64,000 nt of DNA. Origin: an uncultured Acetobacterium sp. (GTDB taxonomy: Bacteria; Bacillota; Clostridia; Eubacteriales; Eubacteriaceae). A program made the position numbers and the translations under genes. The notes beneath the pieces are model-generated. The model ran no database searches. It saw only the letters and a list, made by a program, of their open reading frames with translations, and was not told the DNA's origin. Shown here one piece after another: positions 49,198 through 55,787 of the stretch; the first letter of the stretch is position 1; each line of letters opens with the position of its first letter. The stretch is from the NCBI GenBank assembly GCA_965140355.1, contig OZ223191.1, positions 263,185 to 327,184 of the forward strand. The letters are read 5' to 3'.

Positions 49198-49226
49198 TTG
49201 ACAGATTAGAATAACTATGTTAAATT
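49198..49226 (+). promoter_or_regulatory. Internal sigma-A promoter upstream of the riboswitch array
   Basis: TTGACA, 17 bp spacer, TG-T-TAAATT. Confidence 0.6.
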
Positions 49227-49283
49227 ATAGATACCAAAGAGAATATTACTAAAATGTAATATTTGGAGATGCTAATTAAGATA

Positions 49284-49390
49284 GTTGGAACTTTCCAACG
49301 ATAAGGGCAAACCTATTGAAAAATAGCGACGCAAAACTAAAGGGCCTGTAAAATGGCAGCCAGTTACCGAAAACGGGAAGTTTTTGTTTT
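49284..49390 (+). promoter_or_regulatory. c-di-GMP-I (GEMM-I) riboswitch, copy 1, with a candidate terminator
   Basis: GGGCAAA-CCTATT-GAAA-AATAG-CGACGCAAA-ACT...GGCC...GGCAGCCAGTTACCG; followed by CCG-AAAA-CGG and TTTTTGTTTT. Confidence 0.88.
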
Positions 49391-49434
49391 GTAAAAGACA
49401 GATAAAATGGTAGTTATAAAAGTGAATATGATCG

Positions 49435-49541
49435 TGGAAAGCTTTCCAACGATAAAGGCAAACTTATTGAAAGATAGGGACGCAAAGCTAGAGGGCCTGT
49501 AAAATGGCAGCCAGTTACCGAAAACGGAAAGTTTTTGTTTT
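49435..49541 (+). promoter_or_regulatory. c-di-GMP-I riboswitch, copy 2, with a candidate terminator
   Basis: AGGCAAA-CTTATT-GAAA-GATAGG-GACGCAAAGCT...GGCAGCCAGTTACCG; same 3' hairpin and U tract. Confidence 0.9.
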
Positions 49542-49594
49542 ATAAAAGATTGATTGATATTATTGTTGTAAGAATTAAAGATTAAGAAAAGATC

Positions 49595-49695
49595 GTGGAA
49601 TGTTTTCCAACGATAAAGGCAAACCAACTGAAAAGTTGGGACGCAAAGCCAAGGGCCTGTAAAATGGCAGCCGGCTACCGAAAGGAGTTTCCATC
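49595..49695 (+). promoter_or_regulatory. c-di-GMP-I riboswitch, copy 3, abutting the RBS
   Basis: AGGCAAA-CCAACT-GAAA-AGTTGG-GACGCAAAGCC...GGCAGCCGGCTACCG then AAAGGAG and ATG 49696. Confidence 0.9.
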
Positions 49696-51048
49696 ATGAA
49701 AAAGGTAGTAGTTTTATTAGTAGCACTTTGTATGACATTTAGTATGGTGCCAGTTAATGCAGCATATCATTATAGTGATAATAATCCTAGTAGAAATGTT
49801 GTGGCAACAGAGCCATCTCCACAACCAGAAGTTGTAACAGTAGTTCAACCAGAAAAAGAAGTTGCTGCACCAAGTAGTGAATCGGTAAATGTGAAAGATT
49901 ATAACGCTAAGGGCGATGGTGTTGCAGATGATACATCAGCAATCCAAAATGCATTGAATAAAAATAATTCAGTTTATATTCCGGATGGAACATATATGAT
50001 TAATGTTGATCAATCATTGCGAGTCAATTCGAATCAAACAATCACAATGAGTGCAAATGCTGTTTTAAAAGCGATTCCAACCTCAAGTGAATCCAATGCT
50101 GTTATTCTTGTTTCTGGAGTAAAGAATGTAAATATCTCTGGTGGAAGAATAATTGGCGAAAGAAATAGCCATAAGGGAACAACTGGTGAATGGGGAATGG
50201 GAATTCGAATAATTGATGGCGCAGAAAGTATCACAGTAACTAATATTACTATTAGCGATTGTTGGGGCGATGGCATCTATGTTGGTGGATTCATTAACGA
50301 AGATTCGGTTAGTTCAATCTTAATCGATAACGTTGTTAGTGATAACAATAGAAGACAAGGTTTATCAATTACAAGTGCCAAAAACGTAATCGTCAGCAAC
50401 AGTGTATTTAAAAACACAAATGGAACAGCACCGGAATCTGGCATTGACATTGAACCAAATAAGGATCAAGTTACTGAAGATATTAAAATCATTAACACTG
50501 AGACTTCTGGTAATAATGGAGTAGGGATTTTATTATATGGTAAAAGTGGAACAGTTCGAGGGGTTGAGATTTCAAATAGTACATTAATCAATAATGGTGA
50601 TTTGGGTCTTGCATTAATCACAGCTAATGATCTTACTATCAGTAATACTAAGATTGCTAATAATTGGGTTGGGGTTGAAATTCGAAGTGATATAGTAAAT
50701 ACTATTTTCAAAAATACAGTTATCTCAGAAAATTATGATGCTGGTGTAAAATTGGTTGCAAAATCTCAAAGTTCAGGAATCGAAAACGTTGTTTTTCAAG
50801 AGTCAACATTTGCTAACAATAGTCAATATTCAGCAGGAGCTGCAGATGGTATAAAAATTAGCAATGCAGATTCTTCAGGATATATTAAAGGGATTCAGTT
50901 CAAGGATAGTGAATTCATTGATAATCAGAGCTCGCCTACTCAAAGATCTGGTATTGCGATTGCTTCTTCTAATTCTGTAAGCGGTATAGAGATTGATAAT
51001 AACTGTACTTTTAATGGTAATATTGCAGGCAATAAAATTTCTTTATAA
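49696..51048 (+). CDS. Secreted right-handed parallel beta-helix protein (pectate lyase 3-like; possible polysaccharide lyase or modifier)
   Basis: Signal peptide ending PVNA; NVKDYNAKGDGVADDT...; DCWGDGIY, NRRQG, GIDIEPN; Asn-rich repeats. Confidence 0.8.
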   Translation: MKKVVVLLVALCMTFSMVPVNAAYHYSDNNPSRNVVATEPSPQPEVVTVVQPEKEVAAPSSESVNVKDYNAKGDGVADDTSAIQNALNKNNSVYIPDGTYMINVDQSLRVNSNQTITMSANAVLKAIPTSSESNAVILVSGVKNVNISGGRIIGERNSHKGTTGEWGMGIRIIDGAESITVTNITISDCWGDGIYVGGFINEDSVSSILIDNVVSDNNRRQGLSITSAKNVIVSNSVFKNTNGTAPESGIDIEPNKDQVTEDIKIINTETSGNNGVGILLYGKSGTVRGVEISNSTLINNGDLGLALITANDLTISNTKIANNWVGVEIRSDIVNTIFKNTVISENYDAGVKLVAKSQSSGIENVVFQESTFANNSQYSAGAADGIKISNADSSGYIKGIQFKDSEFIDNQSSPTQRSGIAIASSNSVSGIEIDNNCTFNGNIAGNKISL

Positions 51049-51106: not shown

Positions 51107-51157
51107 AAAACCTTTCCGATTAACGATAAAAAGTCATTAATCAGAAAGGTTTTTTTA
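51107..51157 (+). terminator. Probable terminator after the beta-helix gene
   Basis: AAAACCTTTC.GATTAA...TTAATC.GAAAGGTTTT followed by a T run. Confidence 0.65.
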
Positions 51158-51356
51158 ATTTAATTATTGTTAACGATTCTAAATGAGTATAATTGTAAGT
51201 TGATTTAATAGAAAACTATAGGTATAATTATATAAAGATTATCAAAAACGCTTTATCGAATGTTTAGAAAGTAATAATTATTATTCCGTTTATATAAAGT
51301 GAAAATAAATTCGAGATGAATTCATCAAAAATTTTAAAATAAGAAATGAGAAAAAA

Positions 51357-52874: not shown

Positions 52875-53750
52875 ATGGATATAAAAAGAAAGGTTAAGAT
52901 GGCACTAAAGAAGGTCAAAGCGGGAATATTAAAGATGGATATGCTTTTTTTAAAAGGTAATATCAGAGCGTGGCACTCACGTTATTTTAAATATCGTGGC
53001 AAAGCCCATAAGTTGACAAAGGATATTTATTTTCCTCCACATACCTTTTCTAATAGTAATGTTCGAATGGGACCGTCAGGGGAATTATTAGCAATCGGAG
53101 GAGACTTGTCATCAGAACGAATAATTTATGCATTTAAAAATGGAGTTTATCCGATGTTTTTTAAGAATGATCCGATTCTTTGGTGGACTTCAAACACGCG
53201 TTGTATTTTATACTTGGAAAAATTACATATTGGAAGAGATGTAAAAAAATTTTTGAAGAATCAAAAATTCAATCTGACAACAGATAGAGCTTTTGAAGAT
53301 GTTGTAAATGCCTGCTCAGAATTAAGAAAAGGTGACACATGGCTTACCTCTGAAAGAATAGATGCATCGATAAAACTTCATGAGTCTGGATTTGCTCATT
53401 CCGTCGAAGTTTGGCAGAACGAGAACTTAATAGGGGGATTATTTGGCATTATGATTGGATCCTATTTTTATCTCGAATCAATGTTTAAGCGGGTTGATCA
53501 TAGTTCAAAAGTGGCATTTGTTGCATTAAGTCTCAGGTTAAAGGAGTTGGATTTTTTTATGATAGACTTGGGAATTTGGCCGACTAATAATTTATTAAAT
53601 TATGGTGCTGAAATTATTAATCGTGATGAGTACTTGAAACTAGTAAATAAAAGCATTAGTAGTCCAGACACAAATATAGAATGGGAAGAATTGTTTGAAA
53701 ACTGGGATCTCAAAATGGCGGTTGAAAGACATCTTCAGGAAAATCGATGA
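52875..53750 (+). CDS. Leu/Phe-tRNA-protein transferase (Aat)-like protein, paralog 1
   Basis: LLAIGGDL, YPM, PILWW, AF.DVV.AC, TW, LHE.GFAHSVEVW, GGLFG, ESMF. Confidence 0.85.
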   Translation: MDIKRKVKMALKKVKAGILKMDMLFLKGNIRAWHSRYFKYRGKAHKLTKDIYFPPHTFSNSNVRMGPSGELLAIGGDLSSERIIYAFKNGVYPMFFKNDPILWWTSNTRCILYLEKLHIGRDVKKFLKNQKFNLTTDRAFEDVVNACSELRKGDTWLTSERIDASIKLHESGFAHSVEVWQNENLIGGLFGIMIGSYFYLESMFKRVDHSSKVAFVALSLRLKELDFFMIDLGIWPTNNLLNYGAEIINRDEYLKLVNKSISSPDTNIEWEELFENWDLKMAVERHLQENR

Positions 53751-53940
53751 TTTAGTTTTATTTTATAAAGAACGATGGTTAGAAAATTAAAAATAATTAT
53801 TCTAAATGTAAACATAATATTTTGAATTTAATTTTTATAATAACTCAACCAAACAATAAATAGATTTATATAGAATTTATATTCGAAGGTTTTCTTATTA
53901 TTAGAATCTGCTTTTAAATTTTTGATAAAAGGAGTGGAAC

Positions 53941-54807
53941 ATGACAATCGACAAAGTGAAAAAGAGCATTACCCAGATTAATAAACGATTTTTAAAAGGG
54001 AGCATAAAAGCATATTACCTGCATTACTTTAAATACAAGGGAAAAGCTTATAATTTAACGAAAGACATTTATTTTCCACCACATTCGACATCAAATAAAA
54101 ATTTGAGAATGGGACCATGTGGAGAACTGCTGGCAATTGGAGGAGATTTGACGCCGGAGCGGATGATTTTTGCTTATAAAAATGGAATCTATCCAATGTA
54201 TTTCGAAAATTATCCAATTTTGTGGTGGACTTCAGAAATTCGATGTGTTATATTTCCTAATAATATTCATATTTCTAAAGGTGTGCGAAATTTTGTAAAA
54301 AAAACAAACTTTCGTCTTACCGTGGATAGTGCTTTCAAAGATGTTGTATATGCATGTAGGGAAACGAGAGAGGAATCCACTTGGATTACGCCTGAAAGGA
54401 TTACAGCCTCTTGTAAATTGCATGAATTAGGGATTGCTCATTCTTTTGAAATATGGGACGGAGATCAATTGATCGGGGGATCATTTGGTGTTGCTATGGG
54501 ATCATATTTTTATGGTGAATCTCAGTTTACAAGAGTAAGTAATGCGGGAAAAGTCGCTATGGTTGCATTATGCCTCCGATTAGACGAATTAAATTATTCT
54601 TTGGTAGATGGTGGGTTTTGGCCAACGAAATACTTAAAAGAAATGGGATCTGAGATTATTAGCCGCGAAGCGTATCTAAAAATATTGGAGCACAGCGTGT
54701 GTGAACCGGACATTGTCAAAAATTGGAGCGGTTTATTTGAAAACTGGGATCTTAGATTGGCTATTGAAAAACATCTCAAACAAAAGTCACAAACAGCAAG
54801 TGCTTAA
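53941..54807 (+). CDS. Aat-like protein, paralog 2
   Basis: LLAIGGDLTPER, PILWW, TWITPE, LHELGIAHSFEIW, GESQF. Confidence 0.85.
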   Translation: MTIDKVKKSITQINKRFLKGSIKAYYLHYFKYKGKAYNLTKDIYFPPHSTSNKNLRMGPCGELLAIGGDLTPERMIFAYKNGIYPMYFENYPILWWTSEIRCVIFPNNIHISKGVRNFVKKTNFRLTVDSAFKDVVYACRETREESTWITPERITASCKLHELGIAHSFEIWDGDQLIGGSFGVAMGSYFYGESQFTRVSNAGKVAMVALCLRLDELNYSLVDGGFWPTKYLKEMGSEIISREAYLKILEHSVCEPDIVKNWSGLFENWDLRLAIEKHLKQKSQTASA

Positions 54808-54923
54808 TAATTCTTACATATCAAAGAAAGTATTGATTTTGTATAGATCGGTTCGATTTTATATTGATATCAATAAGTGGTGTACTAAGTTAACATATTG
54901 CGATAAATATGGGAGAATTAAAA

Positions 54924-55787
54924 ATGAAAGTTGGTAAAATTAAAGAGTTGCTTTTTAAAATCGATAAAACTCTTTTTAATGAAAATATTAAAGGGTGTTA
55001 TTCGAAGCATCTTGCTTATCGGGGAAAAGCGTATAAATTAACGAAAGCGTTGTATTTTCCTCCTCATGCATCTTCAAATAAAAATATCCGAATGGGAATT
55101 GAATCGAGTGGAGAATTGCTGGCTTTTGGCGGAGATTTGACGCCGGAACGAATGATTTTAGCCTATAAAAAAGGAATCTACCCATTGTTTTTTGATAAAC
55201 AACCAATTCTTTGGTGGACTTCAGAAATCCGGTATGTTTTATTTCCACAGAAACTACATATCGGAAAAAAAATGCGAAGAATTATTAAAAAAAACAATTA
55301 TGTTTTAACAGCAGATAAAGCTTTCAGAGATGTAATTTGTGCTTGTCGCGAGACTAGAAAAGAATTTACTTGGATTACGCCAGAACGAATTGAGTCATCC
55401 TGTAAGTTACACGAATTGGGATTCGCGCATTCCATAGAAATTTGGCAGGATGAGCGATTGGTCGGAGGATTATATGGAGTTATGATTGGCTCGTGTTTTC
55501 AAGTTGAGTCGATGTTTAGACGAGTAGATAATGCAGCGACGGCAGCATCGATTGGACTATTGCTACGATTAAGTGAAATAGATGGTATTGTTGTAGATTG
55601 TGGATTTTCAGTTTCTGAGCATATTAAAAATATGGGAGCTGAAATGATTTCACGCGATGAATTTCTCGAAATGATTGAAAAAATCATGAAAAATACGGAT
55701 AGTATAGAGAATTGGAATAGTTTATTTGAAAACTGGAATTTCAAACAAGCTGTTGAAAATCATTTTATATTAGATCATAAAACATAG
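54924..55787 (+). CDS. Aat-like protein, paralog 3
   Basis: LLAFGGDLTPER, PILWW, TWITPE, LHELGFAHSIEIW, GGLYG, ESMF, VDC; RBS GGAGA before ATG 54924. Confidence 0.85.
   Translation: MKVGKIKELLFKIDKTLFNENIKGCYSKHLAYRGKAYKLTKALYFPPHASSNKNIRMGIESSGELLAFGGDLTPERMILAYKKGIYPLFFDKQPILWWTSEIRYVLFPQKLHIGKKMRRIIKKNNYVLTADKAFRDVICACRETRKEFTWITPERIESSCKLHELGFAHSIEIWQDERLVGGLYGVMIGSCFQVESMFRRVDNAATAASIGLLLRLSEIDGIVVDCGFSVSEHIKNMGAEMISRDEFLEMIEKIMKNTDSIENWNSLFENWNFKQAVENHFILDHKT

Follow-up and report, generated by a model that had tools for sequence, protein, structure and literature searches.

The stretch of DNA analysed here, hereafter the window, comprises 64,000 nucleotides from the 3.77 Mb genome of an uncultured Acetobacterium sp. 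It contains an EPS locus in which GT2, EpsG and GT2 genes lie upstream of a gene for a secreted 450-aa protein, while a flippase gene, three genes for Leu/Phe-tRNA-transferase-like paralogs, and DegT and WbqC genes lie downstream of it. Between the promoter of the gene and its start codon, three c-di-GMP-I riboswitch units follow one another. The transcription unit is delimited by the following features:

49198..49226, + strand: strong sigma-70-type promoter (TTGACA, 17 nt, TGnTAAATT as an extended -10; 10/12 matches, TG present)
49696..51048, + strand: regulated gene, coding for a 450-aa secreted right-handed beta-helix protein (Pfam PF12708, PF13229)
51107..51156, + strand: intrinsic terminator closing the monocistronic unit (strong hairpin, then seven T)

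The promoter is conserved at the orthologous locus of a related genome (G014), and no promoter in the spacers exceeded the scan threshold apart from weak 9/12 matches at 49228 and within aptamer 3. As the gene has its own terminator and a new promoter follows it at 51200-51228, the array controls a single gene, in agreement with what the preliminary description of this DNA had proposed. The gene product consists of a signal peptide, a Pro/Glu-rich linker and a right-handed beta-helix. Its sequence matches in the PDB are a phage tail fibre, phi29 gp12, a GH55 glucanase and AlgE (mannuronan) epimerases, and it also matches tailspike families in PHROG. Judged from this fold family, the protein would be a polysaccharide-active enzyme, most likely a depolymerase.

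Aptamers and their ligand

A cmscan of the whole window against Rfam returned three c-di-GMP-I matches, all above the gathering score, and thus bore out the earlier claim of three such units. E-values in the window range from 1e-10 to 1e-14, well outside what chance would produce, and a whole-genome search with RF01051, whose gathering score is 35 bits, gave 65.7, 68 and 72 bits for the three copies.

49296..49371, + strand: unit 1 c-di-GMP-I aptamer (RF01051, 65.7 bits, E 1.3e-10)
49448..49523, + strand: unit 2 c-di-GMP-I aptamer (RF03167, 62.4 bits; RF01051, 68 bits)
49609..49683, + strand: unit 3 c-di-GMP-I aptamer (RF03167, 67.4 bits; RF01051, 72 bits)

The aptamers start 152 and 161 nt apart and belong to the short, 76-nt type that is also found in the arrays of the genus. 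Each copy carries GGCAAAC, a GAAA tetraloop, GACGCAAA and UACCG, and the P2 stems (CCUAUU/AAUAG, CUUAUU/GAUAGG and CCAACU/AGUUGG) differ in sequence while their pairing is kept; the motifs, the compensatory changes in P2 and the G at the G20-equivalent position listed in the preliminary description are all present in the sequence. According to the cmscan model alignments, the G20-equivalent is G in all copies (49306, 49457 and 49618), the A47-equivalent is A (49333, 49484 and 49645) and the C92-equivalent is C (49367, 49518 and 49678). In Vc2 numbering, these three positions contact the ligand. Comparative alignments of the units show that the aptamer helices P2 and P1 covary, and the closing P1 is thus supported. 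On these grounds, all three units are identified from their sequences as canonical c-di-GMP-I aptamers (GEMM-I, RF01051) and as putative c-di-GMP sensors.

Copies 2 and 3 obtained the better E-value with the c-di-GMP-I-GGC model RF03167 and were filed under it, so it could be asked whether the aptamers sense a ligand other than c-di-GMP. This is very improbable. The site that defines the GGC variant (model position 37, equivalent to A47) is A and not G in all three copies, which read GACGC-A-AA there and are canonical at G20 and C92 as well, and GGC-variant specificity was rejected on this basis. The two RF03167 matches lie only 3-8 bits over the cut-off of that model, with scores that barely exceed 59, whereas the RF01051 scores (66-72 bits) lie far over the cut-off of 35. 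The match to RF03167 probably arises because the P3 hairpin is short.

When single units were folded by minimum free energy (MFE), their z-scores were unremarkable (-0.9 to -2.2) and the architecture of the array stayed hidden; it emerged from comparative analysis. A minus-strand open reading frame at 49364-49627 (87 aa) was discarded as spurious; it overlaps the aptamers, and its conservation tracks the RNA units and not the reading frame.

The P1 extension and the upstream hairpin

A consensus terminator scan called no terminator after units 1 and 2, and a long-range helix was therefore searched for. Such a helix is formed by the 8 nt just 5' of the P1 5' strand, which pair with the 8 nt just 3' of the P1 3' strand. 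It continues P1 outward across a small A-rich internal loop, so that the whole aptamer lies inside it, and in units 1 and 2 its 3' strand (GGGAAG and GGAAAG, respectively) directly joins a U-run. The unit thus delimited measures about 115 nt and is without a downstream platform. A second element, a hairpin located upstream of the aptamer, uses the same 5' strand. Their positions are:

49284..49299, + strand: unit 1 upstream hairpin GUUGGA-ACUU-UCCAAC (folds, -7.2 kcal/mol; predicted antiterminator)
49289..49296, + strand: 5' strand of the unit 1 P1 extension, AACUUUCC (pairs with 49375-49382, duplex -7.6 kcal/mol; covariation)
49375..49390, + strand: 3' strand of the unit 1 P1 extension, GGGAAGUU (49375-49382), with the U-run UUUUUGUUUU (49381-49390); predicted ligand-dependent terminator
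49431..49453, + strand: unit 2 upstream anti-P1 hairpin AUCGUGGAA-AGCU-UUCC-A-ACGAU (folds, -8.5 kcal/mol)
49440..49447, + strand: 5' strand of the unit 2 P1 extension, AGCUUUCC (pairs with 49526-49533, duplex -8.2 kcal/mol)
49526..49541, + strand: 3' strand of the unit 2 P1 extension, GGAAAGUU (49526-49533), with the U-run UUUUUGUUUU (49532-49541); predicted ligand-dependent terminator
49592..49614, + strand: unit 3 upstream anti-P1 hairpin AUCGUGGAA-UGUU-UUCC-A-ACGAU (folds)
49684..49698, + strand: Shine-Dalgarno (SD) sequence GGAG (49684-49687) through the start codon ATG (49696-49698); predicted SD sequestration, from a constrained fold

The P1 extension is conserved as a structure. A covariance model of the 115-nt unit was built, and 26 units with a U-run were gathered from 18 genomes of the genus. 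In this alignment, 96.6% of the cells of the extension are paired and both sides have changed at 6/8 pairs, as in CG17/UA5/UG4 and CG21/AU2/UA2. With the aptamer helices included, the structure has 27 pairs, and none of 500 shuffles reached the values observed for it; its pairing, 97.6% as aligned, was no more than 52% once the 3' partner was slid. When 400 genomes from the class were searched, 23 further full-length units turned up at 16 loci in other Clostridia families; in these, 93.9% of the cells of the extension are paired and both sides have changed at 8/8 pairs. In one of these, GCUAGU:AUUAGU stands in place of CUUUCC:GGGAAG and the U-run is kept after the helix. The model used for the two alignments was itself built on this structure, so that they lean to it; 20 of the 26 rows of the genus alignment are gap-free.

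Since its 3' strand runs into the U-run, the helix would be, once closed, an intrinsic terminator whose "loop" is the aptamer. The putative terminator is thus an 8-bp covarying stem next to a U-run, branched, with the aptamer inside and a duplex of only about -8 kcal/mol. A 76-nt three-way junction as a terminator loop is not canonical, and this counts against a reading of units 1 and 2 as OFF switches. The U-run-adjacent duplex alone is reportedly what intrinsic termination needs.

The preliminary description had pointed to a 5' hairpin before each copy, competing for the P1 5' strand, and such hairpins were recovered in the folds. The TGGAA...TTCCA hairpin, lengthened by AUCGU:ACGAU, uses CUUUCC of the extension and ACG of the P1 5' strand; in unit 1, it takes up the extension's 5' strand together with the first base of P1 on the 5' side. 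Among the 26 units of the genus, the hairpin is 82% paired in a fixed register. Column 21 of the alignment covaries with its hairpin partner in column 11 (GC14/AU6/GU3) as well as with its terminator partner (CG17/UA5/UG4), which is the signature of two mutually exclusive helices. Because the hairpin holds the 5' strand of P1 and of the extension, it is predicted to be an antiterminator.

By nearest-neighbour energies for the ligand-free RNA, the hairpin state is favoured over the P1 state by about 1-4 kcal/mol in 22/26 units; four of the 26 have no stable hairpin upstream in the fixed frame of 30 nt that was applied. For the window, the hairpin and P1 states are at -16.8 and -15.4 kcal/mol in unit 1, -19.8 and -17.6 kcal/mol in unit 2, and -31.1 and -27.2 kcal/mol in unit 3. 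Gaps of this size could plausibly be bridged by the binding energy of the ligand.

In unit 3, the SD sequence takes the place that GGGAAG and GGAAAG, the 3' strand of the extension, have in units 1 and 2. When P1 is enforced in the fold, UUCC at 49605-49608 pairs with GGAG and an outer helix over the AUG is added. Analogous UUC(C):GGA(G/A) pairing of the SD sequence is found in the last units of relatives, with some compensatory changes, and many single units of other Clostridia have an SD sequence in the 3' strand, followed by a U-run and then the AUG. The layout of two transcriptional units and one translational unit put forward earlier is therefore upheld: units 1 and 2 end in a U-run, unit 3 enters the SD sequence and start codon, and the same order is seen in relatives. 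In the arrays of relatives for which the last aptamer could be classified, each internal unit leads into a U-run and the start codon comes directly after the last unit.

Arrays of this kind are common in the lineage. Tandem c-di-GMP-I units are routine in the genus, where arrays of 2-4 precede homologs of the gene in many species. In G014, the same promoter is followed by a triple array that is orthologous unit by unit; the units are near-identical, the spacers have diverged and the proteins are only 56% identical. Sporobacter and Papillibacter MAGs and a Peptococcaceae MAG, which lie outside the genus, have full-length homologs of the gene (39-47% identity), again behind 2-4 c-di-GMP-I units. 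As judged by Pfam, the compact units outside the genus stand for the most part before genes for secreted transglutaminase-like proteins and for other beta-helix proteins, and tblastn with the beta-helix protein found no homolog at these out-of-genus loci. On this sequence comparison, the array in the window appears to be one well-preserved example of a lineage-wide design. The preliminary description had called triple arrays rare; this calls for qualification. One survey counts 12 triplets against 347 doublets of c-di-GMP-I (Sherlock et al. 2022, PMC9481103), and in the genus and other Clostridia it is routine for homologous genes to have 2-4 units before them.

Polarity of the array

In class I c-di-GMP aptamers, ligand binding stabilises P1. 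The P1 helix of the related pilM c-GAMP switch was seen only with ligand, and Vc2 needs P1 to bind (PMC9262584). It is proposed that, in the ligand-free state, the upstream hairpin, which is transcribed first, keeps the 5' strands of P1 (ACG) and of the extension (CUUUCC). Without c-di-GMP, the hairpin would persist, GGGAAG would stay single-stranded and RNA polymerase would read past the U-run. When c-di-GMP binds at the junction, two P1 base pairs (CG:CG) would close and the lower stem of the hairpin would open. The extension could then zip beside the U-run, and transcription would stop in units 1 and 2, while in unit 3 the GGAG of the SD sequence would become paired and translation initiation masked. 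The ligand is thus thought to favour the P1 state, and this state to terminate RNA polymerase. Altogether, the array probably combines two c-di-GMP-dependent terminations with one translational mask, which would amount to serial OFF control of the beta-helix gene in the EPS locus. As each aptamer has its own predicted control element and all respond to the same putative ligand, the array would belong to the tandem independent-platform (pseudo-cooperative) type.

A covarying helix that encloses the aptamer and adjoins a U-run predicts an OFF and not an ON switch. The OFF polarity is further argued along three independent lines: from the platforms of homologous genes, from the contrast between other c-di-GMP switches of the same genome and from the precedent of C. 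difficile. In Sporobacter and Papillibacter, the homologs have classical platforms. The terminator there is free-standing, and its 5' arm and loop (GCGCAACCGC) are complementary to the aptamer 3' strand (CCGGUUGC), which is an OFF design; the antiterminator is visible in one MFE fold. In the genome of the window itself, a classical ON platform, in which the 5' arm of the terminator is the 3' end of the aptamer, precedes a pilin-like gene, and an OFF-looking platform, with a free-standing terminator whose 5' arm resembles the aptamer 3' strand, stands before a FliK-like gene. ON before a pilin-like gene and apparent OFF before a FliK-like gene match canonical c-di-GMP biology. An EPS-modifying enzyme would fit ON logic better, a point against the OFF reading.

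The preliminary description had taken copies 1 and 2 as probable ON switches, and on present evidence this is probably wrong. Such a switch would work through the free 3' strand of P1, which would form a local hairpin before the U-run and terminate transcription, whereas c-di-GMP would lock the strand in P1 and allow read-through. Local hairpins of this kind exist in units 1 and 2 with UUUU after them, namely CCG-AAAA-CGG, at -2.3 to -2.8 kcal/mol, and a longer one, CGAAAAC-GGGAA-GUUUUUG, at -5.2 kcal/mol; the closing C and G of the latter are common to these two units and partly to G014, and the only triple array characterised so far, Bc3-5, is an ON switch (PMC4759541). CCG-AAAA-CGG followed by TTTTTGTTTT, described earlier as the terminator of copies 1 and 2, is indeed present, but it is probably not a terminator: it has only 3 bp, at -2.3 to -2.8 kcal/mol, and the pattern CCG-N-CGG occurs in only 3/25 U-run units of the genus. 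The longer hairpin is missing from typical units and consists almost entirely of A-U pairs. It is specific to its clade (units 1 and 2 and, in part, G014) and also takes the P1 3' strand, and when it is included the ligand-free MFE lies about 8 kcal/mol below the P1 state; it may reinforce the read-through state or may be a weak ON-type terminator. ON control would, moreover, leave unexplained why the extension beside the U-run covaries so strongly across about 49 units, and it would leave the upstream anti-P1 hairpin without a role, since that hairpin would promote termination regardless of ligand. The homologs in other families, too, have OFF-type platforms. ON control of units 1 and 2 is thus considered unlikely.

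It could also be hypothesized that units 1 and 2 exert no termination control at all, their U-runs being pause sites or spacers or causing constitutive partial termination, with regulation through unit 3, mainly of translation or mRNA stability. The extra aptamers would then provide avidity or a c-di-GMP buffer, or the short terminated RNAs would be functional. In favour of this are the weakness of the extension duplex, the failure of the scan to call a canonical terminator in units 1 and 2, and the many single units of other Clostridia with SD sequence, U-run and AUG in succession, which suggest that translational masking is general to the design. However, within the genus every internal unit has a U-run immediately behind the helix and no last unit has one, as would be expected of terminators and not of spacers, and conservation covers the helix and the U-run but not the spacers that separate the units. 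An array without termination control therefore seems improbable, and serial OFF control, with termination in units 1 and 2 and masking in unit 3, is preferred.

The consequences of serial OFF control can be illustrated with a simple model of independent OFF units in which the read-through fractions are multiplied to obtain the output. With three units of at most 90% termination each, this would give about 1000-fold repression, with half-repression at about 0.3 of the K of a single unit and a somewhat narrower transition. Stacking of OFF units would hence deepen repression and raise sensitivity to low c-di-GMP and would not raise a threshold. In this model, the gene would be expressed only at very low c-di-GMP and be tightly shut off otherwise, which fits an enzyme that dismantles the matrix during dispersal. 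If the ON reading were true, the enzyme would instead be co-induced with biofilm formation.

Comparison with known systems

The aptamer class, the tandem arrangement, OFF logic and the burial of an SD sequence are already known. A literature search of limited coverage found no description of a c-di-GMP-I switch in which the P1 helix is the terminator; within the same coverage, the switching hairpin upstream, the arrays of 2-4 units with a translational last unit and the link to beta-helix proteins were not found described either. It is possible, though we propose it tentatively and with slightly less than even confidence, that these features together make up a widespread and apparently undescribed compact platform of Clostridia. 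It would consist only of an extended (about 8 bp) P1, acting as terminator stem, SD sequestor or both, and an anti-P1 hairpin upstream. Stacked 2-4-fold, it would multiply the repression of conserved secreted enzymes (beta-helix depolymerase-like proteins and transglutaminase-like proteases) and serve a matrix-dismantling dispersal arm of c-di-GMP signalling in anaerobic Firmicutes, with a polarity opposite to that of the sole characterised triple array. A ligand-bound three-way junction as terminator hairpin would provide a clean model, and the economy of the unit makes it attractive for synthetic biology. If the OFF reading holds, acetogens and other Clostridia would have secreted, matrix-active enzymes under c-di-GMP repression, which are candidates for biofilm dispersal; control of biofilms in these bacteria is relevant to gas fermentation and to electrosynthesis.

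Among tandem riboswitches, the c-di-GMP-I class is the most frequent, and surveys have counted its aptamers. In the portions of two surveys available to us, doublets and triplets before COG1305 transglutaminase-like genes of Bacillota are included (PMC9481103, PMC12452182), which is the gene family found here behind compact units in other Clostridia. Those portions do not describe the P1-extension terminator, the upstream anti-P1 hairpin or the link to beta-helix proteins. One of them, a survey of contiguous riboswitches (2025, PMC12452182), expects that every ligand has to be bound for transcription to be promoted. The "direct" and "dual" platforms of the TPP, the preQ1 and the SAM-I riboswitch bury the SD sequence in the aptamer or in the 3' arm of the terminator, as set out in the accessible part of their description (Barrick and Breaker 2007, PMC2258182). 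As in those platforms, a separate downstream platform is absent here and the 3' strand of the switching helix holds the SD sequence, in unit 3 and in many single units of other Clostridia. A transcriptional terminator made of P1 and a U-run and opposed by an upstream hairpin is, by contrast, not mentioned in that part.

Only one triple array has been characterised, Bc3-5 of Bacillus thuringiensis, a triple ON switch whose terminator overlaps the 3' side of the aptamer P1/P3 and is blocked by ligand (Zhou et al. 2016, PMC4759541). Like Bc3-5, the array in the window places three complete c-di-GMP-I units one after another within a single 5' UTR before a surface-related gene, and every unit has a platform of its own. 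It differs in that P1 adjoins the U-run, which predicts OFF switching, in that unit 3 is translational and in that the switching element lies upstream of the aptamer. Closer in predicted polarity are the class I c-di-GMP switches of C. difficile, which are transcriptional OFF switches and one of which precedes the gene for the secreted adhesin-releasing protease PPEP-1 (PMC11477304). The units described here share their aptamer class with the ppep-1 unit and with Cd1 (before flgB), and ligand-induced termination is predicted for them. In Cd1, which is a single unit, the terminator (strands T+H) is separate and lies downstream, the aptamer 3' strand takes part in the antiterminator, and no P1 was detected (PMC9262584); here, in contrast, P1 is long and is itself the predicted terminator stem, and its competitor lies upstream. 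The C. difficile units repress a motility or release function at high c-di-GMP, and the same is predicted for the array before the beta-helix gene.

Further riboswitches and EPS-locus genes in the window's genome

Apart from the array in the window, three c-di-GMP-I riboswitches are found in this genome (G000), all on contig C4:

G000:C4:38490-38565, c-di-GMP-I riboswitch (locus L127)
G000:C4:123825-123911, c-di-GMP-I riboswitch (locus L125)
G000:C4:1317328-1317430, c-di-GMP-I riboswitch (locus L126)

One precedes a type IV pilin-like gene with a classical ON platform, and another precedes a FliK-like flagellar gene with an OFF-looking platform. A GGDEF-EAL gene lies directly 3' of the remaining one, and this adjacency suggests possible feedback on c-di-GMP turnover.

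Within the window's EPS locus, the Leu/Phe-tRNA protein transferase family (PF03588) is represented by a run of three paralogs (52875-55787) that adjoins DegT and WbqC genes. The locus also contains a gene for an IS110-family transposase (NF033542, E 8e-71; 44195-45526, minus strand), inserted between glycosyltransferase genes.

The compact unit beyond the genus

The compact unit, in which the c-di-GMP-I aptamer is combined with an upstream anti-P1 hairpin and an 8-bp P1 extension, is also present in other Clostridia families (loci L128-L143), for example:

L132:1501-1625, compact unit
L135:1501-1640, compact unit
L140:1501-1622, compact unit
L142:1501-1621, compact unit

In these loci the P1 extension often carries the SD (GGAGAG) in its 3' strand, with a U-run next and AUG after that; such a layout would serve both to terminate transcription and to sequester the SD. 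Secreted transglutaminase-like proteins are encoded by 7 of the 10 downstream genes tested, and other beta-helix proteins by the remaining three.

Length and possible growth of arrays in related genomes

Some first units of relatives' arrays are without a U-run and end in GGAAGGUAUCAUAC:

L099:1358-1470, first unit
L100:453-566, first unit
L101:1362-1475, first unit

This end looks like what a last-type unit, which abuts the start codon, would leave after decay of its SD/start region, and suggests that arrays expand through duplication of a whole unit plus its translation start.

Several relatives (L001, L002, L003, L005-L008) carry a second beta-helix paralog after the first, about 1.9 kb 3' of the arrays. 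A single c-di-GMP-I unit belongs to this second gene and abuts its SD (for example, L001:2582-2663 and L003:2526-2607).

Four-unit c-di-GMP-I arrays are found at three loci:

L004:2924-3361, relative's genome G005
L013:2665-3460, relative's genome G022
L020:910-1817, Sporobacter MAG

Each of these arrays exceeds in length the triplets to which the literature consulted draws attention.
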